From the NCBI RefSeq assembly GCF_024223415.1, contig NZ_CP100500.1: a DNA stretch of 64,000 nucleotides. One strand, written 5' to 3'. Under the pieces are notes generated by a model. That model ran no database searches, was not told the origin of the DNA, and saw only the letters and a list, made by a program, of their open reading frames with translations. The position numbers and the translations under genes are program-made. The DNA is from Escherichia coli. GTDB taxonomy: Bacteria > Pseudomonadota > Gammaproteobacteria > Enterobacterales > Enterobacteriaceae. Of the stretch, positions 1-44,247 are shown piece by piece (the first letter of the stretch is position 1; the number at the start of each line of letters is the position of its first letter).

Positions 1-232
1 AACTCGCACATCTTTTTCACGTAAGCTATTGTTTATTCCGTTGAACCTCATTTTGAGGTTGATTGACATACCCGGGGTAAACTCATCTGCGTTGCGGTTG
101 TATATCTGGGTGATTTTATCGCCGCGCGAATACCCCAGCGCAGTAGCCAGCGTTGCGGCGGTGAACCACTGCCTGCCGTTGTGTTCGGTAGTTTCGAGAA
201 CGTGAGATTTGAATACGAGTTGGGTACTCATA
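1..232 (-). CDS. Bro-N / antirepressor-like protein, N-terminal part only (gene runs off the window start)
   Basis: Own translation of the reverse strand from the ATG at 230-232: MSTQLVFKSHVLETTEHNGRQWFTAATLATALGYSRGDKITQIYNRNADEF..., which resembles phage Bro-N domain proteins. Not in the ORF track because it is open-ended. Confidence 0.45.
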
Positions 233-613
233 GTTTTATGTCCTTTGCAATATTTTGAATTCACCCCTTTTGAGAGGGCGGTCAGGCGCTCAAAACCGTG
301 CAAAGTCGGCGGGCGTATTTCCCTTACGGGTATTGTATTAGCCTCACGCCCGACCATTGAATTCTCAATATCGTGGACATAAAAAATCCGCATGTCTGTC
401 GGGTGCGGTTTCCGCTTTGCAAGGTGTTTTGAGCACCATGACGCGGAATATAGCCCCGTTAACGCGACATTGTCAAACTGAAGAATTTTACGGATAGCAA
501 AAACCCCCGAACTGGTGAGGAACAGGGGTTTTTACTTTACTACTGATTTCGCGGTACGCTGATCTCAAACAGACGAGATTATCACCAGACTTGTAAAGTA
601 AGCAATGGGCGGA

Positions 614-1357
614 TTAAGATGAAGCGTTCGCTATCTGAGCGTCGCTGAATGTGAAACCCGCCTGTTTAAGACGCTGGATTAAGCGGGGTACTGTCTCCCG
701 AACATGGTCATTAAAGTTGAGATAAAGAATACCGGCGGCATCAGAAGGCTGCTCAAGGTGTTGTTTCTGCAGGATGACCACGTTACTGCGACCGAGTGAA
801 GATAACAGCATCCCCATTTCTAAAACTACGTTTTGGCGTGCCCTGGGCTGGGCTGCTTCCTGGCCGTCTCTTTTGGCGTATCCCACATCATCGGGAGTGA
901 GGAGAACAATGCCGAAACGCGTCGCTGTCCGTCCCTGACCAATTTCACGTTCAAGCTCTTCAATTATCGTAAGCCCGGTCCCACCGGTATTCTGCAAAAT
1001 AAAATGGTCAGGTAATCCAAGCTTATGAAGAATAAGTTCAAGCTGCTCTTTTGCTACATGATCGTGACCGTGAACGATGAAAATCTTTTTTGCTGGTTCT
1101 TGCATCATGACTGGAGCGTTACCCAGGTGTTCATTAATAATGGCTTCAACCTCAGGTTTTGCCGCTTGTGAACCCTGAATCAAAATCGTTCCGGTGTGGT
1201 AAAGCGTTATGATGGCACCATTACTTAAACGATAACAATCATGACCGGTTTTGTTTTCTTCTCCGGTAACATCAAATCCGGATTCGACTAAAAATTGACG
1301 AAAAGTATCGACAGCGTATGGGTATTTGAGTGCCATTTCATTGAGTTCCTGCATCAT
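614..1357 (-). CDS. Two-domain protein: unknown ~85-aa N-terminal domain plus C-terminal TIR-like domain (FIVHGHD ... LLTPDDVG ... RARQNVVLEMG ... LGR motifs, as in the CAP12/PycTIR-type TIR-like family). Candidate defence/abortive-infection effector
   Basis: 247-aa ORF; motif pattern recalled from the predicted nucleotide-binding TIR-like family; gene is bracketed by an exact 15-bp direct repeat and followed by a hairpin with T-tract. Confidence 0.5.
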   Translation of the reverse strand: MMQELNEMALKYPYAVDTFRQFLVESGFDVTGEENKTGHDCYRLSNGAIITLYHTGTILIQGSQAAKPEVEAIINEHLGNAPVMMQEPAKKIFIVHGHDHVAKEQLELILHKLGLPDHFILQNTGGTGLTIIEELEREIGQGRTATRFGIVLLTPDDVGYAKRDGQEAAQPRARQNVVLEMGMLLSSLGRSNVVILQKQHLEQPSDAAGILYLNFNDHVRETVPRLIQRLKQAGFTFSDAQIANASS

Positions 1358-1410
1358 TGTGTTCCTGTAAAGTAAGCAATAGTTAACAAAGTTGCAACGA
1401 CAACGATCAC

Positions 1411-3477
1411 CTAATCTTTTCTGTAACGGTACGCCTCGAATCCTCCGGCGTTTAGTGGAATGCTCGTGGCCCAGTCAGGAACGGTTGCCAGTAACTGGCT
1501 GAGATGTTCTGCTGAGTAATCGGGTGAGTCAGGGGCCTCACTTATAATTTCATCGTGTACCGTCAGCACAATGCTGTAACCGGCATCTTCGATAAGCGGC
1601 ATGTTTCCGGCCAGAACGTCGCGGGCGGCCGCCTGGGTGACGTTCTCCACCAGCTTTCCGCCGTAGGTTTTGAGTCGTTGCCATTTACGCGAATAAGAGT
1701 TAACACCCATATAGGTGATATCCCCTTTTTCGATAACCGGAGACGGGTAGCATACAGCGCGTCCGGATGGTAGCTGTATGCGCAGCCACGCGCCATCGCG
1801 GCGGATTTTAAGATAACCGCAATACAATGTTTTTTGCGGTGTGGCGATTGCAGTGCGGACGGTGCGCTCCAGTTCGTACCAGAAATCGCAGGTCGCCGGG
1901 TGCGCCCTGCGCCACAGGCGCTTGAGCGAGTCACATGCGATGAATACACGCTCGGACAGGCCAAAGGTCGACTTACGTTTAACCGATTCGTCGTACCAGC
2001 TTTTCGCCTCGCGGATAACATCGCGGGGAATGTTTGGCAGTGCGGCGTTCGCCAGCTCGTCGAGATCGAGACCGTAAACCAGAGCAAAAGTGATGAAAGC
2101 CGATACACCACCTCCATAACCCAGACCGAGTTCCATGACTTTACCGATCTGACGCATGTGTTTATCAACATCATCTGGTGCAATATCGAAAGCTTTTGCA
2201 TACGCCAGTTTATATAAGTCCGGACCCGTTCCGGCGTCGTACTCTCTGAATGCATTCAGTTTCCATTCTTCTCCCGCCAGCCATGCCAGCATACGGCCTT
2301 CAATGTTCGACAAGTCACTTACCACCAGTTTTTTGCCTGTTGGCGCGATAATGCAGCCACGTAACGCTGAACTGGTTAGTTCCATGATATTGTCAAACAG
2401 CAGGTCTGCACATCCGGCTTTCAGTGCTTCGATGCCTTCGTCTATTTGTTCCTGTTTTAGTGAAGGGCGGGGAAGGTTCTGGGGCTGGAATAGCCGTCCG
2501 GCCCAACGACCGGTACGTGACGCCCCGCAGAACTGTAGCGTACCGCGTAAGCGCCCGTCGTGGCTTACGCCTTTCATCAGTGCCTTGTATTTACTGGTGC
2601 TGGTAGTACTGGCCTGCAGGCGGATAGCCAGCAGTTCTTTCACGGCAGATGGTAAATTGGGGTCGGCAATACGACGTTCCAGAGTACTGCGTTGCATGTC
2701 TGGTAGCTCCACACCGTAGGATTCAACAATGTGCTTAATCAACGCGTCCCGTTGTGTGGCTGCCTGCACTTCGCCATCAGTCATTTCCTGTGTACGCTTT
2801 GCCAGGCGCTTTTGCTCCTGGTCTACCGCTTCGATCGCAGCGCGCGCGAGTTGAATGTCCATGCAGACGCCCCGGTCGTTGATCTGCTGATCACGATGCC
2901 AGAGTGCCAGTTCTGTCCCCTGATAATTCCACTTCGGCAGACGTTTATAGACTTCGCGCATTGCCTCGATATCCAGTCCGGCGTAAGCAACAAAGCGCCG
3001 CCATTCTTCCGGGTGGGTTTTGCTGGTGGCCCGGCGCAGTTTGCTGTTTTTCGGGCGTGGTTTGCACAGTAGCTGAATTAGTGACTTGCCTTCTTTATCC
3101 TTCGCTTTGTCCTGCGGGACGCCCAGCACTTCGCAAAGAGCGCCCAGCGCCCCCGGAAGACCATGCGCCAGCGCCTGCACCATTGTGTCGCGCCAGCGTT
3201 CAGTAGCTGGTGACATGTCTGGCATACAATGACGAAGTATCGTGCGGTCAAAGTGCGAATTGTGCGCCCAAACCTCCACATCCGGGTTTTTGAGTGCGAG
3301 ACGTAATTCCGGGGGGATTTTTTCGCCTGCGGTCAGGTCCCACACCTGCACGGGATCGTTATTGATGGCCCAGGCAAAAAGCATAATTTCAGCGCCTTCT
3401 GCATATGCGTGGGTACCGTTTTTTATCGGTATTTCAGAGAAGGTTTCAAGATCGAGCCAGAGAATGTTTGCAGGCAA
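1411..3477 (-). CDS. Phage family-A DNA polymerase with N-terminal DnaQ-like 3'-5' exonuclease
   Basis: 688-aa ORF; exonuclease motif LDLETFS near the N-terminus; polymerase motifs [16 protein letters not shown] (motif B-like K...YG) and VHDEI (motif C-like). Confidence 0.85.
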
Positions 3478-3546
3478 AACAGGACCCTCCGTAAATTAAA
3501 CGGCTACAAAAAGCCCCTGACAGTGCAGGGGCGGGATTGATTTGAA

Positions 3547-4311
3547 TTAACGAGGTAAGGCTGGTGGAATGTATCTGCCGATGCGGTCTTCTATGGTCGG
3601 CAGAATGCACATGCTGTCGCTGAAGCGGTCATGCAACTGGTAAACCAGTTTAGAATCCATTTTTTCGAGAGCAGGCATTAACTGCGCCCGCCAGATTTCG
3701 TTGATGCGCCGGAAGTTATGACAGACGGCGCGGAGATTGTTGATGAACATTTCCTTCTCTGCGTCAGTGACTTCTGTCTGTGTTTTCTGAATACGCTTTG
3801 TGCTGCCATTCCGATAGAAGCGTTCCTGAGCAGCAACAGCCTCATCCACGGTTGGATAGCACCCTACGTAAACGCTCTTCTCTCCGTTCCATGCGTAGGC
3901 TCTGTACGGGTTGTATTTGCTCCGGTGATGGTAAACCATCTTCGGCAGACACTCCCTGTGTGGCGCCAGTATCGTGGAGGATTGCTGGTGCAGTTTGCGT
4001 TCGCACTCGATGAAGTATCGGCGGATCTGGCGGCCTTTTTCGTTGCGCTCCACCATCGCCAGTTCTTTGGCCGTGTCGAGGGTGAGGTGGTAGTCCTTAC
4101 AAAGAACATTTTTACGCTTTCCAGTTTTGGAAAACGTTACGATATAATCCTGATTTTCAACGAATTCATAGTCTGCAATTCGTGATGTAATCCACGCTGC
4201 AAACACTTTCCCTACCCCAAGGAATGCGTGCAGATCGCGAGCATTGCAGAGCAGGGTGGTTTCGTTGGCGATAGCGCCGTTGAAAACGGGGATGAGTTGA
4301 GTTGCCATCAC
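3547..4311 (-). CDS. Protein with AntA/AntB-type antirepressor N-terminal domain
   Basis: 254-aa ORF; N-terminal LIPVFNG ... LHAFLGVGKVFAAWITSRIADYEFVENQDY ... YHLTLDTAKELAMVERNEKGRQIRRYF resembles the AntA/AntB antirepressor domain. Confidence 0.55.
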   Translation of the reverse strand: MMATQLIPVFNGAIANETTLLCNARDLHAFLGVGKVFAAWITSRIADYEFVENQDYIVTFSKTGKRKNVLCKDYHLTLDTAKELAMVERNEKGRQIRRYFIECERKLHQQSSTILAPHRECLPKMVYHHRSKYNPYRAYAWNGEKSVYVGCYPTVDEAVAAQERFYRNGSTKRIQKTQTEVTDAEKEMFINNLRAVCHNFRRINEIWRAQLMPALEKMDSKLVYQLHDRFSDSMCILPTIEDRIGRYIPPALPR

Positions 4312-4469
4312 AGTTACCTCTAACGGTGAAATTCACCGCCACCACTGAGTTGCAAATCTCATATGGGTGGCGAACTGACGAGGTTTGCAATACCGGCGTT
4401 AGAGGAAACCGGCGCGCCGAAGCGCCCCCGCCAGCCCGCCATAATGCGAACGTGGCAAAGCTTGCGACA

Positions 4470-4500
4470 ATAAAAAAGACGCTGGCGCGTCTGGTGTCGC
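4470..4500 (-). terminator. Rho-independent terminator-like hairpin downstream of the DUF2815 gene
   Basis: On the minus strand, AGACGCGCCAGCGTCT hairpin followed by TTTTTTATT (plus-strand aataaaaaagacgctggcgcgtct). Confidence 0.5.
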
Positions 4501-4691
4501 CCCTAACAATTCCGGGTTGCAAATCCCGATCTCCATTTGGGAGATTCGGTGAGCATAAACCGGAAGGGGGCGATGAGTCAATATCGGGGTAGCAGGGCGA
4601 CTGGGTGCTAACCAGAACAATACAGGTAGCTCCGGGCATATTCCCCTTTGCAAAAACACCCGGCGTTTAACCGGGCGTCTGTGAAGCAGGA

Positions 4692-5240
4692 TTAAATCAG
4701 TGCTTCAGCATCAGCACCTTCGCTGATATCGTCGAAATCGTCAGCGCTTGCCACTCCGCCGCCAGCGAATGCATCGCCGTCTCGCAGGAACTGGACTCCG
4801 CCGAGTGAGGCATTAATGCGTTTACCGAAATTATTGTCCTGTGCCCAGATATCGATAACGGCGTTTACATAGCACCCTGCATAGGGACGTCCATCAGCCT
4901 GAGTAAGTGGCGAACGATCGCGATCAAGAACAGCCGGGCGCGCTTTGTTAGCAGCATTCAGGAAGAAATTACCGGGGAAACCTTCATACTCTGCTTTTTC
5001 ATCGCCGTCATGCAGGCACAGATTGAGTTTCTTCTCCAGTTGGTTATAAACAGCCTCCCACTTCTCTCCCCATTTTTCCTTTGCGACCTGCTTCATTGCT
5101 TTACGGATTTCTTCCAGTTGTGGGTGTTCGGGAGACATTAAAAATACAGCGGAGAAACGCGGATCGCCTTCGCCGTTTACAGTTTTAGCTTCAAACAGCG
5201 CAGGAAAAGCCAGACGAACATTGTTCAGCTTCAGTTTCAT
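4692..5240 (-). CDS. DUF2815-type phage protein (putative ssDNA-binding protein of the PolA/DUF2800 replication module)
   Basis: 182-aa ORF starting MKLKLNNVRLAFPALFEAK, acidic C-terminal tail; adjacent to DUF2800-like gene as commonly seen in phages. Confidence 0.55.
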   Translation of the reverse strand: MKLKLNNVRLAFPALFEAKTVNGEGDPRFSAVFLMSPEHPQLEEIRKAMKQVAKEKWGEKWEAVYNQLEKKLNLCLHDGDEKAEYEGFPGNFFLNAANKARPAVLDRDRSPLTQADGRPYAGCYVNAVIDIWAQDNNFGKRINASLGGVQFLRDGDAFAGGGVASADDFDDISEGADAEALI

Positions 5241-5255
5241 TATATGTCTCCTTAA

Positions 5256-6560
5256 TCAGATGAGGTCAGCGGCGAGCGCGTCGTCGGACACGTCATCGAA
5301 ATCATTTACAGGGTTAATATTGAGTGCGGGGCGCGGATCTGAATCAGGAACGACGGTGGGTTTACCGTCCGCTCGTGTTATCAGGGCCTCGACTTTTGGC
5401 CAGCGGCGCGGACTGGCTTTTTTGATGAGTTTTTCTGCTTTGGCAGGGCTAATCAGTTTAAAGTCGAAAACTTCTTCAGTTTTATACCTGAACTGATCCT
5501 TCAGAAGAGCTCGAGCTGCTTCCTCATCACTCCAGGTCCGGTTACCTTGTTTTCCTGTTACCAGTTTAAACCCCGGTACCGTATGCCCGGCATGGAGTTC
5601 ATTGTGAACCCGGTCACGTAGCGCTTTGCAAAAAGACTCAATCAGGTCAACATGGCTGTAAATGTCTGCCAGTTGTTCAGCGGTCAGTAGTGGTACACGC
5701 TTAACGGCATCTGCGAGTTGCTCGCCAACGGGTCTGCTCAGGTCAACGAAGTCGTCCGCAACGGCGTTAAGTCTGGCCTGTGCTTCTGCTGAACACAGCC
5801 CACCTTTTGCTTTACAGAAGAGGCACTGTTTCTCGCCTGGTGTGAAGTTTTCAGGTGGCAGGGTTTCGACGCCTTCGCAATCGGCGATGTTGAACATCAC
5901 GATCACACTGGCGGCAGCTTCCTGCGCCCGTTTGCCGAATGCCTGCAGTTCCTCCACCGTCAGGGACCACTCTGAAACGTGGTTAATCCGCGGCTGGTGG
6001 ATGAACAGGCGCACCGTCTCGAAGTCGTACAGAAGGCTGAACTGCTCGAGCACGCCCAGGGCATACAGCTGCAACTGCTCGTTCTGCTCAGCGTCGACAC
6101 GCACTCCCTTACCGTATTTCAGGTCGTGGATCTGCAGTTCGTTACCCGCGATGATTATGCAGTCGGCAGTTCCGAAAGAGTCTTCCACACCGACGATGTG
6201 GGAGAAGTCTACGCGTTGCTCAACCAGCAGCGTGTTGCCCTGTGCCAGTGACCAGACTGTATCAACATACCGGCCAACGGCTTCGACCATTTCCTCATCC
6301 ACCTGTGGGCCAGATGTATCATCAGGATTTGCGCGAAGGGGGTATGAGCCGAGAAACATAGAAACATTGCATCCGGCGTAGTGTTCCGGGTGACTTTGCC
6401 TGTTTCGCAGGACTTTTTCTGCAAGCGCGTGCGCCGCAGTACCTTCAACAGCAAAGGATGTTTCTTTGTCAGGCTGAGTGGACTCCAGCGCCAGACTGCC
6501 GCTACAACGCATCCATCTGTGGGCGGCTGATGGAGATAATTTTGCATGAACCTCGGGCAT
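5256..6560 (-). CDS. DUF2800-type PD-(D/E)XK nuclease-like phage protein
   Basis: 434-aa ORF; N-terminal [15 protein letters not shown] motif typical of DUF2800; C-terminal cysteines ([11 protein letters not shown]). Confidence 0.6.
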
Positions 6561-6562
6561 AA

Positions 6563-7486
6563 TTAACCCTCCAGCGCTTTTTCAGCAAGGGCTATCACGT
6601 CTGCGAGTTTATCGTCAGCGACTTCACCGAGTTTTCTGGCTCCCTGTTTTTCCAGAATGGCAATAGCTTCTGCCCGGTAACCGCCTTTTGCAAGCTGGAG
6701 GATCAACCCTTCGGCCTGTTTACGCAGTGCAGCAAAATCGGTCTGTTCGCCAGTATCTTCCACGGCATCACCACCAGTTTCGGTACCGCTTTTTGCTGCG
6801 TCTCTGCGTGCAAATTCTTCCTGCAGCTGAAGGTACTCAACACGGTTGATCTCGATATGGCCTTTTTTCAGCATCTCGTTCAACTTGCGTAAGGTGTGGA
6901 GTTCACTGGCTGCTGTGCCGGATACATTTTTGACGTAAAACGGCCCCGTGCGTTCTCCATCTTTGTTACTGGCCTTTTTCGGCTTAACTTCATCACGCCC
7001 ATCTGCAGGTGCATCAAGTAGCTGCTCGGCAAAAGCACGTCGCTCGCCGATAGTTGGCAGGTCGTCCCAGAACTTAAGAATGTTGCGGGACAGGTCCAGA
7101 AGAGCGGGTTTATGCAGTGCCCTGGCTCGTTTGACGCACTGCAATGTGCTGTCGAGAGCATCAATCTGAACTACTCGTTTATCACCTTCAGCATCACGGT
7201 AAGCAACAGCTCGTTGCAGCATGTCTTCAGTAACAGGGGTAGCTGACGGGTAGAAACCAGCCAGTGCGATAACGTCGCTGAACTCCAGATCATCCAGTGT
7301 CATTACCGCTTTATTTTCAGTTTCATCTGCTGTTTCGGTTGCTGTATCCCGACATTCCTGTACTTGTGAAATGGCGTCAGGATGCATAACAATACCTGAT
7401 GCCATTGTGCGGATAAGACGTTCAAGCAGCACATTATGTTGCGCCAGAAGTTGGTTATTAAGTTCGAGACTGGTTTCTAAGCTCAT
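6563..7486 (-). CDS. Hypothetical phage protein
   Basis: 307-aa ORF, tightly packed in the leftward operon (ends 1 bp before the next gene); no motif recognised. Confidence 0.5.
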
Positions 7487-7665
7487 ACTGTGGTCCTCGC
7501 TACAAGGAGAATGAAAGTGATGATCAGGCCAAGTGCAGTGGCAACGACCAGACCTGTCATCAAATCGAAGTGTTTACGGCGATAACGGAGAACATCGCGC
7601 CCCGTCAGTCGATGGATGTGTTCAGGTTTCATCGGTTGTATTCCTTTTTTCATATCGGGGAGCAC
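7483..7665 (-). CDS. Small hypothetical protein with C-terminal hydrophobic helix
   Basis: 60-aa ORF overlapping the start of the downstream gene by 4 bp; C-terminus LVVATALGLIITFILLVA. Confidence 0.35.
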   Translation of the reverse strand: MLPDMKKGIQPMKPEHIHRLTGRDVLRYRRKHFDLMTGLVVATALGLIITFILLVARTTV

Positions 7666-7748
7666 GCTGTTGCGAGTGCGCTTTCAGACATAAAAAAGCC
7701 CGTCACTTGCGGCGGGCAAAGACTACACACAGCAATTACATGGATGAT

Positions 7749-7943
7749 TCAGTTGGTATTGTGCGTACGTGGTACCACGAGGTTGAAGCGGACACGCCAG
7801 TGCGTTGCAATGGTATGCAGGAAAGCACCACATCTAGGGCAGTGCTCATAACATTCGTTGATTTGGTATCGTTTTGGCTTTGGTGTCTGAAGTTGTGTTT
7901 GGCAAGCAGGGCATTCACCTTTGAGCGGTTTATACGTTTTCAC
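7749..7943 (-). CDS. Small zinc-ribbon-like hypothetical protein
   Basis: 64-aa ORF with CPAC ... CPRC cysteine pairs. Confidence 0.35.
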   Translation of the reverse strand: MKTYKPLKGECPACQTQLQTPKPKRYQINECYEHCPRCGAFLHTIATHWRVRFNLVVPRTHNTN

Positions 7944-8224
7944 GCCGTTTCCTCATTCAGTTCACTTTGGTGGTTCGGCGGCTTCGACTTGTATCAGTAG
8001 ACAGTGCTTCGCCGCACCCCAAAGGGAACTTACTGACCCGTATTGCCGACATCCTGTCCCGCCACGGTCCCGACGCATGGTTTAGAGTCGCGCCGTTCGA
8101 CTTGATGAGGGATAAATTACTATGTTTATTGTATTACGTAAACCACAAATATGGTATTTATGGTTGCAAAAATACCATATTATTGATATTTAAGTTAATT
8201 TAGTTGGTAGACAATCGGGGCGGG

Positions 8225-8262
8225 CGGTATGGCGGGAGGGCTTTTTCGCCCTCTTTCTGGAT
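8225..8262. terminator. Hairpin GAGGGC-TTTTTC-GCCCTC with T-rich flank just downstream of the cI-like gene
   Basis: Inverted repeat read directly in gggagggctttttcgccctctttctgg. Confidence 0.4.
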
Positions 8263-8266
8263 GGGA

Positions 8267-8893
8267 TTATCTTTTGCGGCGGTAAATACGATGTTCAATC
8301 ATGACCCCTACGATCTGTAAGGGGACATCTGCACTTCGTAGCACGGGATAGTCGGGATTCAGGGGGACCAGTTCAAAATCATCAACGCCGATACCCAACG
8401 GGCGGTATTTTTTGAAAGTGGCCTCATACCCGTTGTTCTTTGCAACGACGAATTCGCCAGGCATGGGGCATAAATCCGGGTCAATTATTACAATATCGCC
8501 TTCCTTAAACTCCGGTTGCATACTGTCACCATCTATCCGCAGGGCGAAGCAGGACTCAGGTACGTCGGAATCCGCGAGAACGTATTCCATATTTCCATCC
8601 ATGTCCGTAGCGTCTTTTGCTTCCGTTAGCGCACCGGCCTGTACGTAACTGAGGATCGGGATGCGGCGGGTACTTATTTCCGCCAGGGGCATTATATTCC
8701 TGCCATTTAAAAGCCAGTCGGGACTGCATTTCAGTGCCTTTGAAAGCTCTATGATGTTGCGGGGCTTCCGGGTCTTTCCGCTTTCAATAGTCTCAATGGA
8801 TTGCTGGCTGACCCCCGCGATTGCTGCAACTTCTGTTTGTGTCATCCCGAGTTCTGTACGGCGTGCTTTAAAGCGTTCTGCAAGTGACATGGT
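8267..8893 (-). CDS. cI: cI-like prophage repressor (XRE-family HTH plus S24 LexA-like peptidase domain)
   Basis: HTH GMTQTEVAAIAGVSQQSIETIESGK and peptidase region LRIDGDSMQPEFKEGDIVIIDP; start taken at MSLAERF (AGGGGG RBS) rather than the ORF-track start at 8956; divergent from the cro-like gene. Confidence 0.85.
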   Translation of the reverse strand, partial: TMSLAERFKARRTELGMTQTEVAAIAGVSQQSIETIESGKTRKPRNIIELSKALKCSPDWLLNGRNIMPLAEISTRRIPILSYVQAGALTEAKDATDMDGNMEYVLADSDVPESCFALRIDGDSMQPEFKEGDIVIIDPDLCPMPGEFVVAKNNGYEATFKKYRPLGIGVDDFELVPLNPDYPVLRSADVPLQIVGVMIEHRIYRRKR

Positions 8894-9006
8894 GTACCCC
8901 CTGATTCCTGATTTTTTGCTCTCCCTTATTAATACAATTTTTGTTGTAGTTGACAAACATCATTTATTGTCGCTAAATACCACATAAATTGTAGGAGACA
9001 ATAATC
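8894..9006. promoter_or_regulatory. Divergent cI/cro intergenic control region (oR/pRM/pR analogue)
   Basis: 113-bp AT-rich spacer between divergent repressor genes containing ACCACA-type half-site repeats (taccacataaattgtagg) also seen left of cI. Confidence 0.5.
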
Positions 9007-9216
9007 ATGACACTTGCTACCCGAGTAAAAAACCAGCGTAAGGCTCTTGGCCTGACGCAGGTTATGCTGGCAGAACGCACAGGGATTAGCCAGCAGGCCA
9101 TTAACCGCATTGAAAGCGGCCTTATATCCCGTCCCCGTTATCTGCTGGAAATAGCTGTTGCCCTGAACTGCGACCCTAACTGGCTGTTGCATGGTACTCC
9201 CGCGGATAAGACGTAA
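9007..9216 (+). CDS. cro: Cro-like HTH repressor
   Basis: 69-aa ORF with XRE HTH (LGLTQVMLAERTGISQQAINRIESG), first rightward gene. Confidence 0.8.
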   Translation: MTLATRVKNQRKALGLTQVMLAERTGISQQAINRIESGLISRPRYLLEIAVALNCDPNWLLHGTPADKT

Positions 9217-9219
9217 CTT

Positions 9220-11364
9220 ATGGCCCAGATCAATCTCTCATACGGCCGGGAACTGGTAGACAACCTTCCTGTGCCCTGTACTGATGCCGATTTTAACCGG
9301 ACATTTAAGCGTGTTAAAAAGTGGGCTCGTGCTATCGGCGCAACCAAACAGGATACAAAAAGCCAGCTTAACGCCAAAAAAGCGCGTCTGCCCTACATCT
9401 GGCACGCAATGAAGGACGTCACCAAAGGTCGTAACGCTGCTAATGCGGGCAACCGTGATGTGCTCTTCATGGATATGGACGGCTGTAACGCGCCTGCATG
9501 GGGCGCTTTACGCGATGCGCTGGCCTGTTTCTCATGTTTCACCTATTCAACGCCAAGTCATCTGCACCCCACTGCAAACGGGGAACATCGCTGGCGTATC
9601 TGCCTGGAGCTGAGTCGCCAGGTCACGCCCGAAGAGTACAAGCGTCTTGGCCTTGCGGTTGAAAACTGGCTGATGGATTGTATCAGCCTGCTGGACGATT
9701 ACACCGTCAAGTGGGACCACAGCGTTTACAACCCGGACCATATGGTTTTTGCCCCTGATGAAAAGGCCATCTTTGAACGTTTTACCGGGGAACCTGTTGA
9801 CGTTGATATCCTGTTGGCCAGCGCACCGGAAGTTACCATCCCTGAAAAAGCATCTTCCACAGACCGCGATGATTTGTCACGCGCTGTCGAACTGAACGGC
9901 ATCAGTCAGGAAACTTTTGACGACCTGCGCGAAGTGATGTGGCATCCGGCTGTACTGGCAGACGCTGAGCCGGGTTGCGGTAAATACCATAGCTGGGCGG
10001 CGATGGGAAATCGTCTGGCATGGTTTAAGGGAACCGACTGGGAAGACGCAGCCCGTCAGCTTTGGGTCGACTGGTCGATAGCGGGTGGTGGCGATGGCAT
10101 CAGCGCTGAACATAAATGGGACAGTAACCAGCTTACCGCCGAACGAACCGGTTACCAGGCCATTTTCGCCCATGCGCAGAAAGCAGGGGTCGCTAACCCC
10201 GCGACCGACCGTATGCGCGGTTTTGTCGCCGGTGCGAATGACTTCGACGAGTTGCCACCGGAAAAACCGGAGCTGCCAAAGTCCAGACCGCACACAGGCG
10301 GCTACGGTAAGCCGGGAAAGTTCATCATTGAAGGGATGGTGCCGCACGGGGTGACCATGCTCTATGGAGCTTCGTCATCGTTCAAATCCTATGGCGTTAT
10401 CTCCATGCTCTGCCGTGTGGCGACGAAAACTCATCGCTGGGGCGGGCGTAACCTCAAAGGTGGCGCTGTTCTGTATGTTGCCGCTGAGGGTGGCAGCTCC
10501 GTTATGCCGCGTGTCGGCGCATGGGCGGATAAGTACAATGACGGTAAGCCACTGGATTTGTTCTACACCCTGCCACTGGCGGTTGATCTCTCTGTCCCCG
10601 CAAACGTCACAAAGATGGTAAACGAGATTAAGCGCATAGCGTACCACACCGGCGAACCTGTCCGGCTTGTGGCCGTCGACACGCTGTCGCAGTCCATGAT
10701 GCAGGGCGAGGAAAACAGCGCCAGTGATGTGGCAAAATTCATGGCGGGCGCAACCAGGGTGTTCACCGAAACGGGCGCAGCGGTGATTATCGTTCACCAC
10801 AGCGGCAAAGACAGCAGTAAGGGGATGCGTGGCTCTTCTGCTGCCTTTGCTAACGCCGATGCGGTCATTCGCGTGGAACGCATCGGCGACGCGGTGAACC
10901 TGATTAACGAGAAACAGCGTACCGGTCCGGTACAGCCGACCCGCGGTTACATGGTACCGACAGTGCAGCTTCCTGACGACGTTATCGCGGCTAACGAAAC
11001 GTACGATGATGAGTATACCAGCACTGAAGGGGAAGTATATGACCCTGTAAGGCTTACCACCGAGCGCGTGTTTGAAGATGCACCAATGGCGGAGATCACC
11101 CCACTGCTGGTGGATAAGGGCGACGGGAATACCAAAGGCAGCAGCGATGAATCCTGGGTATGGGAAAAGCTGGAGGCCTCCGGCGGCAGCATCAACCGTT
11201 CTGCGCTTCGCGAGTTATGGAAGGATGAAACCGATAAAAGTACCGGTCAGTTACGTGCGGTTCTGGGGCGCATGAAAGAGAAGTATTACATCGTTGAGCG
11301 CGACGGCGTAATCAGGGATCCGCTATGCAATGGCGTACCACCTGGAGGGGATGAAATTGCTTAA
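9220..11364 (+). CDS. Replicative primase-helicase (N-terminal primase-like region, C-terminal RecA-fold AAA_25/RepA-like helicase)
   Basis: 714-aa ORF; C-terminal Walker-type region with LVAVDTLSQS and IIVHHSGKD motifs typical of AAA_25/DnaB-like helicases. Confidence 0.7.
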   Translation: MAQINLSYGRELVDNLPVPCTDADFNRTFKRVKKWARAIGATKQDTKSQLNAKKARLPYIWHAMKDVTKGRNAANAGNRDVLFMDMDGCNAPAWGALRDALACFSCFTYSTPSHLHPTANGEHRWRICLELSRQVTPEEYKRLGLAVENWLMDCISLLDDYTVKWDHSVYNPDHMVFAPDEKAIFERFTGEPVDVDILLASAPEVTIPEKASSTDRDDLSRAVELNGISQETFDDLREVMWHPAVLADAEPGCGKYHSWAAMGNRLAWFKGTDWEDAARQLWVDWSIAGGGDGISAEHKWDSNQLTAERTGYQAIFAHAQKAGVANPATDRMRGFVAGANDFDELPPEKPELPKSRPHTGGYGKPGKFIIEGMVPHGVTMLYGASSSFKSYGVISMLCRVATKTHRWGGRNLKGGAVLYVAAEGGSSVMPRVGAWADKYNDGKPLDLFYTLPLAVDLSVPANVTKMVNEIKRIAYHTGEPVRLVAVDTLSQSMMQGEENSASDVAKFMAGATRVFTETGAAVIIVHHSGKDSSKGMRGSSAAFANADAVIRVERIGDAVNLINEKQRTGPVQPTRGYMVPTVQLPDDVIAANETYDDEYTSTEGEVYDPVRLTTERVFEDAPMAEITPLLVDKGDGNTKGSSDESWVWEKLEASGGSINRSALRELWKDETDKSTGQLRAVLGRMKEKYYIVERDGVIRDPLCNGVPPGGDEIA

Positions 11365-11379
11365 TTTTACCAATTTGCA

Positions 11380-11640
11380 GAAAGCTACAAATTTGCATAA
11401 AAATGCAAAAATAAAATATATGCAATTTATTTGCATAAATAGTCAGCGCAACAAAAATTTTAAGCAGCAAGCGCAACACGATGCGCAACAGCGCAACAAA
11501 AAATGTTGCGCCGCTGATTTTAAAGGCTTTTTTAACCGCAACAAGAGCAACACGACGGCTAGCGTAGTGGCGCAACACAATACCCCTCTCCCCCCTTTAG
11601 GGGGGAGGGGTTTGTTGCGCCCGAGCCGTTGCGGTTTTTA
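11380..11640. repeat. Candidate replication origin: AT-rich tract, multiple GCGCAACA iterons (direct and inverted) and a perfect 12-bp-arm palindrome
   Basis: GCGCAACA or its complement TGTTGCGC occurs repeatedly; palindrome cccctctcccccctttaggggggagggg at 11583..11610; TGCATAAA/TTTGCATAAA repeats at 11391..11445. Confidence 0.5.
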
Positions 11641-11687
11641 TTCATTTAAATGCATATGCAATGCTGGTGAATGATAAGGGGGTGCAG

Positions 11688-12386
11688 ATGCTGACAGCAA
11701 TCAACAACGAAAAAATTGTCATCGCAAGGGACGCGCAGAAACCGGGAATTTTCGCCTGCCCGGAATGTGGTGAAGTTGTCACCCTGCGGAAAGGTTCGGT
11801 GAAAGTTCACCATTTCGCCCATCGCAGCACCACATCCTGCGGTTACGGGAAAGGCGAATCTGAGTTGCACATGGATTTGAAAATGCAGGTCTATGACGCG
11901 TTGAACGCGCATCGTGAGGTGGAATATGTTGCGATGGAGGTCGCAGTCGGTGATGTTCGTCCCGATGTGCTGGCGATTATTCGGGGTCAGAAGGTTGCTT
12001 TTGAGATTCAGGTTAGTTCGCTGAGTATTGAAGACCTCTATCGCCGCACGGTTGCGTACGCAGCTCAGGACATTGCGATGATCTGGATCCTGCACTGGCC
12101 TGAAGGTACTGCACTGGACCGGCTTTATCACCCTGCATCATGGGAGCGATGGTTACATACTTGCGGAATGGCAACTCTGTACTTCTGGGCGGGCGATGGC
12201 TGGGTCAGGCCAGTGCGTCTGGGAAACCGACAACATGGATTACAAAGAGCACCTCGTGCCCATCTGGTTGATGATTTCGAACCAAAGCGAACAGGCGGGT
12301 GGATTAAAGGTGATTTTCTGATACCTGCTCGCTTTATCTGGAATCGTGTGCGACGGCAAAAACGTAGAGGTCAGAGCTATGCGTAA
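11688..12386 (+). CDS. CoiA-like protein (competence protein CoiA-like family, predicted nuclease)
   Basis: Start at ATG 11688 (AAGGGGG RBS); N-terminal CPECGEVVTLRKGSVKVHHFAH zinc-finger-like segment typical of the CoiA-like family. Confidence 0.5.
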   Translation: MLTAINNEKIVIARDAQKPGIFACPECGEVVTLRKGSVKVHHFAHRSTTSCGYGKGESELHMDLKMQVYDALNAHREVEYVAMEVAVGDVRPDVLAIIRGQKVAFEIQVSSLSIEDLYRRTVAYAAQDIAMIWILHWPEGTALDRLYHPASWERWLHTCGMATLYFWAGDGWVRPVRLGNRQHGLQRAPRAHLVDDFEPKRTGGWIKGDFLIPARFIWNRVRRQKRRGQSYA

Positions 12387-12813
12387 TATTCAACAGGTTT
12401 TAGAGCGCTGGGGTGGCTGGGCTGCCAATAGCAACACCACAGTGAGCTGGGCTCCAATAGCGGCGGGATTTAAAGGGCTGGTAGTCAGCAGCCTGCCTGG
12501 CAGGCTGAGTTGCTGCGACGACGATGGCCTGATTATCGATGCTTGCGTCTGTCGGCTGCAGCAGGTCCGTAAGCCTGAGGAACTGGACGTCATTATGCTG
12601 TACTACGTCTACGGGTTAAGCAAACGTGAGATAGGACGGCGGCGTCGATGTTCTGAAGGATTTATCCGCCAGCAGTTGCAGGTAGCTGAGGGATTCATTG
12701 AGGGGTGTCTCTGCATGCTGGGTGTGAGCCTTCAGATGGATCCTGAGGTCGAAATTCAAAGGGATGAAAAAAGTATTAGTGCGCTACGCAAAAACTGCGC
12801 TACGCTGGTATGA
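12379..12813 (+). CDS. Q: Late-gene antiterminator Q (phage 21/82-type Q family)
   Basis: Sequence MRNIQQVLERWGGWAA ... resembles lambdoid Q antiterminators; position immediately upstream of the lysis cassette. Confidence 0.7.
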   Translation: MRNIQQVLERWGGWAANSNTTVSWAPIAAGFKGLVVSSLPGRLSCCDDDGLIIDACVCRLQQVRKPEELDVIMLYYVYGLSKREIGRRRRCSEGFIRQQLQVAEGFIEGCLCMLGVSLQMDPEVEIQRDEKSISALRKNCATLV

Positions 12814-12989
12814 GTTGAATTTCTGACCTCAACGAAGAGCTCCAAATTATTGGGGGTTTTTTGTACGCACAACAGGTAATAGTATTGAACCCGCAGACCT
12901 CGCGGAACTGGTGAAAGGTGCCGCGCAGTGCTCTTATCGTTGTGGTGAAGCTCAATGGCGAGCTAGCAGATAGGCGACAGTGAAAATAC

Positions 12990-13070
12990 TAGTCATGTAT
13001 CTGACCGCCGCGCGTACTGCAATCGGCAGCGCACCGATGGAAGCCGGTTCGATTCCGGCCGCCACAACCC
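12990..13070 (+). other. tRNA-like element (canonical T-arm GCCGG-TTCGATT-CCGGC and a foldable anticodon-like stem) that does not fold as a complete canonical tRNA
   Basis: gaagccggttcgattccggccgccaca read directly; possible anticodon stem atcgg-cagcgca-ccgat; no convincing D-arm or 5' acceptor strand at the correct spacing. Confidence 0.3.
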
Positions 13071-42321: not shown

Positions 42322-43731
42322 ATGAAATTTATAATGGCAAAGAATGTATTGGCAATGGCGGTTACCGGTGCGCTGTTATGTTACTCTGTGGGGGTTATGG
42401 CAGAAGAGAGTTTTAATGTAGATGGATATGAGGTTACTCTGTATGATAATGGTGCGGCAGTAATATCAAAAGGTAATGATGTTAATCTTATTAATACTAT
42501 TACTGGAGCTAATACAGGGCGTATTGTCCCGAATGATTCTATTACGCGTGCTATATTAGCAGCTCCTGAGAATGCTAGGCATATTGTTGCTCAGGATTTG
42601 CTAACTTACCCCATCTACTCAGATGCATTAAAAGCCGAAAACATCAGAAATATAAAAGCAGAAGATATAAAGTCCATTGTTGATACAAAAGAATCACTAC
42701 AAAAAATAATCAAGCCAGAAAACAAGGATGATTATATCGCCGCTGTTAATGCTGGTGGTACCGCTGAGGATTTTATTAAAATTAGTAATACAACATCGGG
42801 ATTGTCATCATTGTATAAAAATGTAGTTGAAGGCCAGAATTTTGTTCTGGATTCATCAGGCCGAATCACTGCTGACGGAAGGGCTGACGGAAATGCTCAG
42901 ACAGTCCCTGTTAAAGAATTCGTCGTGGAGCTGGATAATCGTACCCGCAACCTTGGGGTTGAAGTGAAATCACAGGGAGACAGTCTGCGTGGTGAGATAG
43001 GTGGTGTATACAGAGATGCCCGTGCTCATACTGACAGTCAGGTCACAGCAGTACGTGATGAACTGAAGGCAGAGGGAGACAGTCTGCGCGGTGAGATAGG
43101 CGGTGTATACAGAGATGCCCGTGCTCATACTGACAGTCAGGTTACAGCAGTACGTGATGAACTCAGCAGGGATATTATTGCAGGCACATCGGCAGCGGTG
43201 GCGTATACGGATGCATCTTCTCTTGCTCTTCAGGATGAAATAAAAGAAAAAGCGGATGAAACAGTTCAGGTTTCCCGGGCTTATACAGATAAAAGTGTAC
43301 GGGATGCCCGTAAAGAAGCGAAAAGCCAGGCAGAACATCTCAGCGATGTGCTTGTGAAGAACAGGGCGCAGACGGATGCAGCAATAGCCTCAAATACAGC
43401 AGCGATAAGGAATAACAGTCATCGTCTGGATTTGACGGAAGCCTGGCAGAAGATGGCGACAGAGAGAATGAATAATATGCAGGAGCAGATTAAAGAGAAC
43501 CGGAAGGAGTTAAGGGAGAGTGCAGCCCAGAGCGCGGCACTGGCCGGTCTTTTCCAGCCATACAGTGTTGGAAAATTTAACGCGACAGCAGCCGTTGGTG
43601 GTTACCGTGATGAGCAGGCCATTGCGGTGGGCGTGGGCTACCGTTTCACAGAGAATGTGGCAGGAAAAGTTGCAGTTGCTGCAGGTGGGTCATCCGCATC
43701 GTGGAATGCTGGTGTGAATTTTGAGTTCTGA
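42322..43731 (+). CDS. Trimeric autotransporter adhesin-like protein (YadA-like C-terminal anchor); resembles prophage-encoded Eib immunoglobulin-binding proteins
   Basis: Signal peptide; coiled-coil stalk with 33-aa tandem repeat; C-terminal anchor [10 protein letters not shown] ... [20 protein letters not shown]. Confidence 0.7.
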
Positions 43732-43791: not shown

Positions 43792-44247
43792 ATGCTGGAT
43801 ATAATCCTGGCGACGAGAGATATTTATTTTGAAAAAGCCCTGCGAGAGATATTTGGAACCGTAAGCAGTCGAATCAGATATATAGAAGATGCCATATCAG
43901 ACAGAAGAAGGGTGCAGTCAGGCAGGTCATTCAGATATTATTTTGTATTCTGTGATGATGAGTATACAGATATTGTTCGTATTCTTTTTACCGGAGAGGC
44001 CTGCTGTATTCTGAATAAGTCGATGCTGAATCTGAGAGCGGCCGGAGGTGTGTTGACGCTGGAAGAGCGCAGAGCGGTACTGAACCGGTATTACAGAGGT
44101 TTAAGTATTGCGGAGATTACAGAAGAGACGGGGCAGAATGACAAGACGGTATACGGTCATCTTCGTCGTGCACTGCAGCGGTCTGGATTCCGGAAGGGGC
44201 GTTTTATAAAGGGGAGAGAAGCTGCGGGGGATTCAGGTGTTGAATAA
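43792..44247 (+). CDS. Putative LuxR/GerE-type HTH transcriptional regulator
   Basis: C-terminal LTLEERRAVLNRYYRGLSIAEITEETGQNDKTVYGHLRRALQ fits a LuxR-type HTH. Confidence 0.4.
   Translation: MLDIILATRDIYFEKALREIFGTVSSRIRYIEDAISDRRRVQSGRSFRYYFVFCDDEYTDIVRILFTGEACCILNKSMLNLRAAGGVLTLEERRAVLNRYYRGLSIAEITEETGQNDKTVYGHLRRALQRSGFRKGRFIKGREAAGDSGVE

Follow-up and report, generated by a model that had tools for sequence, protein, structure and literature searches.

This report concerns the early region of a prophage of Escherichia coli (assembly GCF_024223415.1, contig NZ_CP100500.1), carried by a stretch of 64,000 nucleotides that is called the window here and in which all positions are counted. 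The region under study spans 1411-11364, and the left end of the prophage lies beyond the left edge of the window. The element is very probably an intact lambdoid prophage, with virion, packaging and lysis modules like those of lambda and phage 21 and an early region of the APSE type made of two separable units: a rightward cassette of initiator and origin, and a leftward operon of replisome and recombination genes. An earlier note on this DNA had described a lambda-like prophage with a non-lambda replication module and had implied that this combination is unusual. The arrangement is real, but it is common and its layout is already known: APSE-1, a phage of Hamiltonella, has the same early region, as do phages isolated from E. 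coli and E. coli genomes by the hundred. The one addition that was not found described is a putative origin that co-varies with the recognition helix of its initiator.

A lambdoid prophage with an APSE-type early region

The genes of the early region and the segments adjoining it are listed below; the activities named are predicted.

1411-3477, minus strand: family-A DNA polymerase with 3'-5' proofreading domain, 688 amino acids (aa) (PF00476, phrog_17)
4692-5240, minus strand: Gp2.5-like single-stranded DNA-binding and annealing protein (DUF2815, Enc34 ORF6 family) with acidic C-terminal tail (PF10991, 1.4e-44; phrog_112, 2.1e-57)
5256-6560, minus strand: DUF2800 nuclease of the PD-(D/E)XK type with acidic tail (PF10926, 3.6e-104; PDDEXK_1; phrog_69 exonuclease)
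6563-7486, minus strand: conserved protein of 307 aa, always beside DUF2800 (phrog_6784, 5.3e-170)
7483-7665, minus strand: small conserved open reading frame (ORF) of 60 aa, first conserved gene of the leftward operon (phrog_11981, 1.1e-34)
8267-8956, minus strand: CI-type repressor with helix-turn-helix (HTH) and S24 self-cleaving domain (profile match)
9007-9216, plus strand: Cro-like HTH protein (HTH_3, profile match)
9220-11364, plus strand: replication initiator/primase-helicase, 714 aa (AAA_25, 3.9e-28; motifs; fold comparison)
11365-11660, no strand: probable origin, directly 3' of the initiator stop codon (iterons, AT-rich stretch, hairpin)
11661-12386, plus strand: CoiA-like nuclease (PF06054/PF25164; synteny)
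12346-12813, plus strand: Q antiterminator, end of the early-right region (PF06530, 2.5e-50)

Profile searches of the window's proteins recovered every gene that the earlier note had named at the positions listed. Its assignments of a PolA-type polymerase with 3'-5' exonuclease, a DUF2800 nuclease, a DUF2815 protein and a primase-helicase are borne out by Pfam and PHROG matches, motifs and fold comparison.

The regulatory frame is that of a lambdoid phage. A cI-type repressor gene and a cro-type gene diverge, with a leftward and a rightward early operon, and a Q-type late antiterminator is followed by a lysis cassette in the lambda gene order. The late half holds Q, lysozyme, Rz, the Nu1 and gpA terminase, a lambda-family portal (B), capsid E, tape measure H and tip protein J, which make up packaging and morphogenesis genes of the lambda type, and its DNA matches phage 21 and lambda-type phages at about 94% identity over about 64-66% of a 25-kb query. 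The lambda-like immunity, Q, lysis and morphogenesis modules of the earlier description are present. From about 45083 rightward the window enters the host flank (purL, mltF, glrK), which is 99.9% identical to many E. coli strains; everything to the left of about 45083 is prophage and runs off the left window edge.

The replication pair of lambda is missing from this frame, as had been proposed. The interval between cro and Q holds only the 714-aa protein, a repeat-rich gap of 300 nucleotides and the CoiA-like nuclease, and profile searches of the ORFs between cro and Q gave no homologue of O, P, DnaB or DnaC; no O gene with an origin inside it, and no P or DnaB/DnaC-type loader, was found there. 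Gene lengths match those of relatives (polymerase 687-688, DUF2800 433-434, DUF2815 182 and initiator 713-714 aa), and no frameshifts were seen in the early-region genes.

A comparison with lambdoid phages and with phages that carry PolA and DUF2800 placed this early region among known ones. It is syntenic with that of APSE-1 at 60-71% protein identity, and synteny was also found with prophages of Serratia, Xenorhabdus and Salmonella. The E. coli phages vB_EcoM-606R2, 689R2 and 611R5 (ON470579 etc.) share about 90% DNA identity with the window over the stretch from polymerase to DUF2800. Some part of window 1-12000 is matched by 373 of 5426 complete E. coli genomes, with a best match at least 80% identical in 292. 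Among the matches listed, 25 of 25 cover the polymerase and DUF2800, and also DUF2815 where feature lists show it.

The 714-aa initiator

The rightward initiator is an AEP primase joined to a PriCT-like domain, a RepA-like helicase and a C-terminal winged helix, with activities that are predicted. Profile searches detect the helicase half only (AAA_25, 98.9 bits), for which RSF1010 RepA is the only credible, if marginal, match by sequence in the PDB. The primase half gave no Pfam, NCBIfam or PDB sequence match, residues 1-347 finding nothing in Pfam even at E-values up to 10. Curated Prim-Pol and PriCT profiles did not match it either, PriCT_2 being detected only in Xenorhabdus homologues. Fold comparison was needed, and it revealed the AEP catalytic fold. 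The prim-pol domain covers about residues 1-205 (D85, D87, S113, H114, H116, D166), and its motifs I (D85-x-D87), II (S113-H114-x-H116) and III (W165-D166) are invariant in 13-14 homologues with 46-85% identity. A PriCT-like helical domain follows at about 225-330. The RepA-type SF4 helicase at about 365-600 has the RecA fold, with K389/S390 and D487 invariant in homologues, and the winged helix at about 642-700 carries R679 and R684.

The protein recurs at 100% identity in a cluster of 60 member sequences. A distant DNA search with the initiator gene matched one of 5426 complete E. coli genomes. The allele is rare in E. coli, being absent from complete genomes besides that of F1022, and is common in Salmonella by protein search. 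In different prophages the primase and PriCT-like half (9220-10250) is fused either to a RepA-like (AAA_25) or to a VapE-type ATPase, the domain swap falling at about residue 345 and the shared half being up to 86% identical (P0107-P0120, APSE P3).

A putative origin and its co-variation with the recognition helix

Immediately after the initiator gene, an AT-rich stretch with TTGCA repeats (11365-11445) is followed by eight CGCAACA iterons (11447-11619), six of them direct and two inverted, with the inverted copies on the flanks of a C/G hairpin (11583-11610). The octamers GCGCAACA occur 11 times in the window, 7 of them within 175 nucleotides, and none of 100 shuffles reached 11. Such a cluster of short repeats beside an AT-rich stretch, here far above chance, is what an iteron-type origin would be expected to show.

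The window was compared with six relatives of the initiator at 53-77% identity, from Salmonella, Arsenophonus, Serratia, Xenorhabdus, Klebsiella and the locus L018. No 7-mer is commoner than the iteron in the segment behind the initiator gene, which holds for all seven pairs of initiator and origin, and the five iteron variants never cross-occur.

E. coli window: CGCAACA, 8 copies
Salmonella L007: CGCAACA, 9 copies
Arsenophonus L019: CGCAACA, 7 copies
Serratia L003: CGTAACA, 7 copies
Xenorhabdus L005: CGTGACA, 9 copies
Klebsiella L017: CGTGGCA, 9 copies
L018: CGGGACA, 6 copies

The surrounding scaffold (GATTTTAAAGG, hairpin and AT-rich part) stays in register in five sequences out of these seven, namely those of E. 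coli, Salmonella, Arsenophonus, Klebsiella and L018, and every iteron copy is replaced. Across the seven pairs the five variants track residues in helix 3 of the winged helix, namely the two that follow the invariant R679.

Iteron centre CAA: residues AV/TV/TV
Iteron centre TAA: residues VT
Iteron centre TGA: residues TT
Iteron centre TGG: residues KE
Iteron centre GGA: residues RE

It was also considered whether iteron specificity resides in the primase half, an idea that arose from the similar GTAACA core of APSE-1 and Serratia, and this was rejected. In a chimeric initiator from Salmonella (L015), a primase half of 86% identity is joined to a C-terminal half of the VapE type, and its iterons, GTCCCAACC, are unrelated; since the same primase half occurs with unrelated iterons, it does not set specificity. 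The Klebsiella pair, in which the helicase is near-identical, the winged helix diverges and the iterons read CGTGGCA, rules the idea out as well. Unrelated initiators carry their own block of iterons, AT-rich DNA and inverted iterons at the same position, both those of the VapE type (ECONIH2, APSE-1) and those of the Prim-Pol+DUF5906 type (606R2). The comparative evidence for an initiator-origin cassette is strong, and the initiator is predicted to bind these iterons and to fire replication from this segment.

On the 3' side of the origin, the CoiA-like nuclease is found in E. coli, Klebsiella, Serratia and Xenorhabdus relatives with the same initiator type. It is absent in Arsenophonus L019 and in L018, and Salmonella L007 keeps a short remnant of its start only.

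The leftward operon

The product of 1411-3477 is a family-A polymerase with a proofreading domain, its activities being predicted from conserved residues. It scores 53.9 bits against PF00476 (DNA_pol_A), above the gathering cut-off of 34.3, and matches phrog_17 (DNA polymerase) at 1.3e-127. The exonuclease motifs Exo I (D9/E11), Exo II (N73/D77) and Exo III (Y165/D169) are present, as are polymerase motifs A (D388), B (R442/K446/Y454) and C (H641-D642-E643), and there is no 5'-3' exonuclease domain. Identity is 65-71% to P45 of APSE-1 and 90.8% to the polymerase of 606R2. The DUF2800 protein, 60% identical to P51 of APSE-1, has the residues D133, D146-x-K148 and QxxxY, and its cysteines C19 and C246-x2-C249-x5-C255 follow a Cas4-like Fe-S pattern.

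Matches to PF10926, PF10991 and a family-A polymerase lie as neighbours on one strand, their adjacency interrupted by a 1.2-kb cassette with an AntA-type antirepressor gene. This is the module that has been named duf2800-gp2.5-polA, and phages of both Gram-positive and Gram-negative hosts are reported to carry it (PMC8093625). No separate gene for an SSB, a protein that binds single-stranded DNA, was found in window 1-13000, the left part of the early region lying beyond the window. The earlier note gave 1411-11364 for the module. Its genes are there, but the left window edge truncates it: in relatives the operon runs on through a VRR-NUC gene or other small genes to an SNF2 helicase, xis and int.

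The C-termini of DUF2815 (4692-4740) and DUF2800 (5256-5300) were compared in the window and in L003, L005, L007, L009 and L010. Both carry the same kind of acidic tail, ..DDFDD[IV]S..A[ED]LI, and in Serratia both tails are changed together to ..EF[VI]. By analogy with the acidic tails of T7 gp2.5 and gp4, this suggests that SSB and nuclease may dock on one shared partner, for which the polymerase and the helicase are the predicted candidates.

The 307-aa protein beside DUF2800 has relatives in Serratia, Xenorhabdus, Salmonella and APSE-1 (P53). Searches found no Pfam, NCBIfam or PADLOC family for it and only PHROG families of unknown function. It is modular, its N-terminal coiled segment, central domain and C-terminal helical domain of about 55 aa all being kept as far as P53. 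Its segment 'GPFY...VEYLQLQEE' is missing in Xenorhabdus and shifted to near the N-terminus in Serratia. Within the small ORF at 7483-7665 the real gene is about 49 aa long, and a 49-aa gene is called at this site in relatives.

Proposed mechanism and alternatives

Knowledge of the protein families suggests how the two units could work together. After induction, transcription from pR would yield the initiator, and its winged helix would bind the iterons. The RepA-like ring would then open and load itself onto the AT-rich stretch with no help from DnaA, DnaB or DnaC, and primers would be made by the AEP domain independently of DnaG. The pL operon, in place of the Red genes of lambda, would supply a proofreading polymerase, a gp2.5-like SSB/annealase and the Cas4-like DUF2800 nuclease. 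The VRR-NUC nuclease and SNF2 helicase, judged from relatives, would take part in recombination-dependent replication and branch processing. Overall, this would amount to a T7-type minimal replisome with recombination-dependent replication in a lambda regulatory frame. Independence from DnaB, DnaC, DnaG and Pol III, which we infer from this family knowledge, is plausible.

A more general reading is put forward tentatively, as one that has nearly as much in its favour as against it. The leftward operon of polymerase, SSB and nuclease may be a generic host-independent replisome that serves at least three unrelated and freely exchanged initiator-origin cassettes, of the RepA, VapE and Prim-Pol+DUF5906 types. 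Within the RepA type, origin specificity would follow a simple code that matches two recognition-helix residues to the central three bases of iterons of the form CG-NNN-CA. If so, lambdoid prophages could change their replicon specificity without touching the replisome, co-resident prophages could thereby escape cross-activation or competition, and nature would hold a small set of orthogonal origin/initiator pairs.

Several observations weigh against the main explanation, that of an APSE-type early region with its own initiator-origin cassette and replisome operon. The Walker A motif of the initiator is atypical, GASSSFKS (10363-10389, residues 382-390), with F where GK[ST] has G, and it is invariant in this form in 13 homologues. 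The visible part encodes neither a clamp nor a ligase nor a 5'-flap nuclease; some host functions must therefore still be drawn on, and independence cannot be complete. A terminator-like hairpin at 4659-4675 follows the SSB gene, so that transcription from pL would reach the polymerase only with antitermination, unless another promoter drives it. The window lacks the left third of the early region. Finally, RefSeq has a 107-aa hypothetical protein, WP_029490148.1, over the putative origin in strain F1022 (L001 13273-13596).

The alternative that survives best, although unlikely, assigns DUF2800 and DUF2815 mainly to a Red-like recombination module, with the polymerase used for recombination-dependent or repair synthesis and host Pol III carrying out bulk replication once the phage helicase is loaded. 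Within the pL operon the genes do occupy the interval from the immunity region to int, where lambdoid Rec modules are found (PMC12315714), and DUF2815/gp2.5 has been classed as a family of single-strand annealing proteins (PMC8093625). PHROGs labels phrog_112 as 'ssDNA binding and annealing protein' and phrog_69 as 'exonuclease', and a processivity factor is not recognisable. However, the polymerase is invariably linked to both genes across 1726 phage records, including virulent phages that have no other polymerase, and its catalytic and proofreading motifs are complete. No other SSB is seen in the visible early region, and the two roles do not exclude each other. T7 gp2.5, for example, performs both.

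A second alternative concerns the origin: the segment 11365-11660 could be a small protein gene or a control region for CoiA and Q, just upstream of which it lies. This is improbable. RefSeq and some gene callers place a hypothetical protein of 104-117 aa on the segment; the corresponding 114-aa ORF of the window (11330-11674, plus strand) was rejected as an improbable gene, its product being of low complexity with no credible family and not conserved in Serratia or Xenorhabdus, where no ORF is called. These hypothetical proteins are probably not genes but an annotation artefact. A DNA scaffold that is kept while all iteron copies change at once is the pattern of a protein-binding array and not of coding DNA, and the blocks of unrelated initiators stand at the same place whether CoiA follows or not.

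That the module is a non-functional remnant in a defective prophage is the least probable view: the int, xis and SNF2 helicase end is not visible in the window, insertions of the AntA cassette and of a TIR-domain gene interrupt the operon, and the hairpin follows the SSB gene, but all genes are full length with catalytic residues intact and no frameshifts, the initiator recurs at 100% identity in its cluster, more than 200 assembly blocks carry the TIR protein in a context that is complete from int to capsid, nothing is missing from the modules for morphogenesis and lysis, and close relatives have been deposited as complete phage genomes.

Antirepressor cassette, TIR protein and other cargo

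The following features belong to the antirepressor cassette and to the left end of the window.

3547-4311, minus strand: AntA/AntB-type antirepressor, 254 aa (PF08346, 9.6e-25; phrog_377)
4363-4446, minus strand: C4 antisense RNA, full length (Rfam RF01695, 70.6 bits; gathering score 45)
4545-4472, minus strand: isrK-family leader RNA (Rfam RF01394, 50.9 bits; gathering score 50)
614-1357, minus strand: TIR-domain protein, 247 aa, downstream of the polymerase (PF10137, 5.6e-31; PADLOC PDC-S35, 8.9e-107)
272-355, minus strand: sRNA-Xcc1-family (C4-like) RNA, full length, adjoining the Bro-N gene on its upstream side (Rfam RF02221, 79.8 bits; gathering score 53)
1-231, minus strand: 5' portion of a Bro-N-type gene, cut off by the left window edge, which continues the leftward operon (translation)

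The earlier note had counted polymerase, DUF2800, DUF2815 and the AntA-like protein as one leftward replication operon. The first three stand, whereas AntA does not: with the RNAs C4 and isrK it forms an antirepressor cassette complete in itself and like immI of P1, cargo at a variable hotspot and not a replication part. The C4 RNA lies upstream of the AntA start at 4311 on the same strand, as in the P1 immI type, and a promoter-like TTGACT-18-TATGCT (4581-4552, minus strand) lies ahead of the isrK-family RNA. The match to the c4 a1/b1 target model RF03163 is weak, at 29.8 bits against a gathering score of 46.7. The AntA gene has 83% DNA identity to an AntA copy that is located elsewhere in relatives. 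A 157-aa ORF at 4166-4639 was rejected as a gene and is probably spurious; it has no family match and overlaps both RNAs and the AntA start.

The hotspot itself, 3478-4691, lies between DUF2815 and the polymerase. It was compared in L001, L002, L003, L005, L007, L009 and L011-L014. AntA occupies it here, and relatives hold SIR2, Nmad5, UCP028583, Band_7, HNH endonucleases or plus-strand ORFs.

The TIR protein is a candidate defence gene by its profile matches, carried as cargo in the replication operon and not as a replication part. Phage vB_EcoM-606R2 and E. coli ECONIH2 have the gene at this position too, and in ECONIH2 a SIR2 protein occupies the hotspot near it. Relatives with an identical TIR protein carry a 258-aa Bro-N gene at the position of window 1-231. 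The sRNA-Xcc1 RNA and this Bro-N gene look like a second pair of antisense RNA and antirepressor.

At the right end of the prophage, two further plus-strand cargo genes were seen: one (42322-43731) for a 469-aa protein with a YadA-type membrane anchor, a trimeric autotransporter that is possibly Eib-like, and one (43792-44247) for a 151-aa HTH protein like sigma-70 region 4. Two Rfam matches fell below threshold, an RprA-like one at 7688-7797 (minus strand, 48.9 bits against a gathering score of 70) and an ohsC-like one at 494-569 (minus strand, 44.5 bits against 50); both are probably chance matches. The attachment region of the prophage in relatives adjoins shoB/ohsC. A promoter and terminator scan of 7400-9400 gave nothing above shuffles.

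Significance

E. coli, Salmonella, Klebsiella, Serratia and insect symbionts commonly carry lambdoid prophages of the APSE type, without O and P, and nothing in this layout would surprise a specialist in phage genomics. The value of the analysis lies partly in annotation: initiators of this type are routinely labelled only 'AAA family ATPase', and the origin is often called a hypothetical protein. Once induced, a prophage equipped with a polymerase, a primase-helicase and an SSB of its own may replicate with no need of DnaB, DnaC, DnaG or Pol III. Replication free of these host proteins, if true, would affect host takeover, superinfection and co-resident prophages. In-register iteron swaps, in turn, offer ready material for the evolution of origin specificity.

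Comparison with known systems

The layout of APSE-1 is reportedly that described by van der Wilk et al. in 1999. Its early region is syntenic with the window gene for gene, with a repressor, a cro-like gene, the P3 initiator, origin-like iterons and Q to the right. To the left it has P53 (the relative of the 307-aa protein), P51 (DUF2800), P50 (gp2.5-like), a variable spot and the P45 polymerase, followed beyond P45 by VRR-NUC, Ant, an SNF2 helicase, xis and int. It differs in its virion module, which is P22-like (podovirus) and not lambda-like, in the iterons (GTAACAACC), in an intein in the polymerase and in its toxin cargo. P3 shares only the primase half with the window initiator, at 48% identity, and has a VapE-type ATPase in place of the RepA type. 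The phage (Sendosyvirus) has been called lambdoid, and a comparative study of APSE phages (PMC7313666) reports that they too have c4, isrK and Xcc1 RNAs and, next to the polymerase, a variable region.

Nearer relatives are found in E. coli. The 606R2 group and the prophages of F1022, ECONIH2 and O55:H7 CB9615 share the stretch from polymerase to DUF2800 at 87-92% DNA identity and the same TIR site. The F1022 prophage agrees with that of the window also in its initiator, in its chromosomal site and in its origin, which differs by one base over the aligned stretch. Prim-Pol+DUF5906 or VapE initiators, other iterons and Mu-F/Pa193-type head genes set the 606R2 group and ECONIH2 apart, as does their hotspot cargo (SIR2, Nmad5, a plus-strand ORF). 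A literature search on phage 606R2 found no paper.

Other carriers of the module are Enc34, Chi-like and Jersey-like/Kagunavirus phages and temperate phages of Staphylococcus and Streptococcus, in which these three families lie side by side and a separate ssb gene is absent. Their polymerases are 30-44% identical to that of the window, and 1726 phage records contain a member of the polymerase family. The carriers that have been described are mostly virulent siphoviruses or temperate phages of Gram-positive bacteria; unlike them, the window sets the module in a lambda-type regulatory frame, with an antirepressor cassette inserted. ORF6 of Enc34 is an experimentally characterised SSB (PMC5686142).

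T7 (gp5, gp4, gp2.5, gp6, gp3) resembles the window in its family-A polymerase, its fused RecA-fold hexameric primase-helicase, its acidic-tailed SSB of the gp2.5 family and its accessory nucleases. The window differs in having an AEP and not a Toprim/zinc-finger primase, a Cas4-like and not a FEN-like nuclease, and no origin driven by an RNA polymerase. It is temperate under cI/cro control, and it gives no evidence of a thioredoxin-type processivity factor.

In SaPI/PICI elements (pri-rep-ori) and in satellite phage P4 (alpha with ori/crr), one initiator unites primase and helicase with a domain that binds DNA sequence-specifically. The initiator gene is followed directly on its 3' side by the iteron origin, and specificity is allele-matched. 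The window cassette is likened to these on its single initiator with a 3' iteron origin, but its families differ from those of P4 alpha (Toprim with SF3) and SaPI Rep (SF3-like), and it sits in a complete phage with its own polymerase. RSF1010 keeps its RepA helicase and RepB' primase separate and has a separate initiator, RepC, whereas in the window these are fused, with a winged helix.

The antirepressor cassette shares with immI of P1/P7 (c4 RNA-icd-ant) and the isrK locus of Gifsy-1 (PMC4825925) the order of isrK-family leader, C4 RNA and antirepressor gene. It differs in its AntA-type antirepressor and in being embedded in a replication operon. The early region as a whole travels with lambda-like (the window), P22-like (Serratia, APSE) and Mu-F/Pa193-type (Xenorhabdus, Salmonella, 606R2) virion modules, and such combinations are ordinary lambdoid mosaicism.

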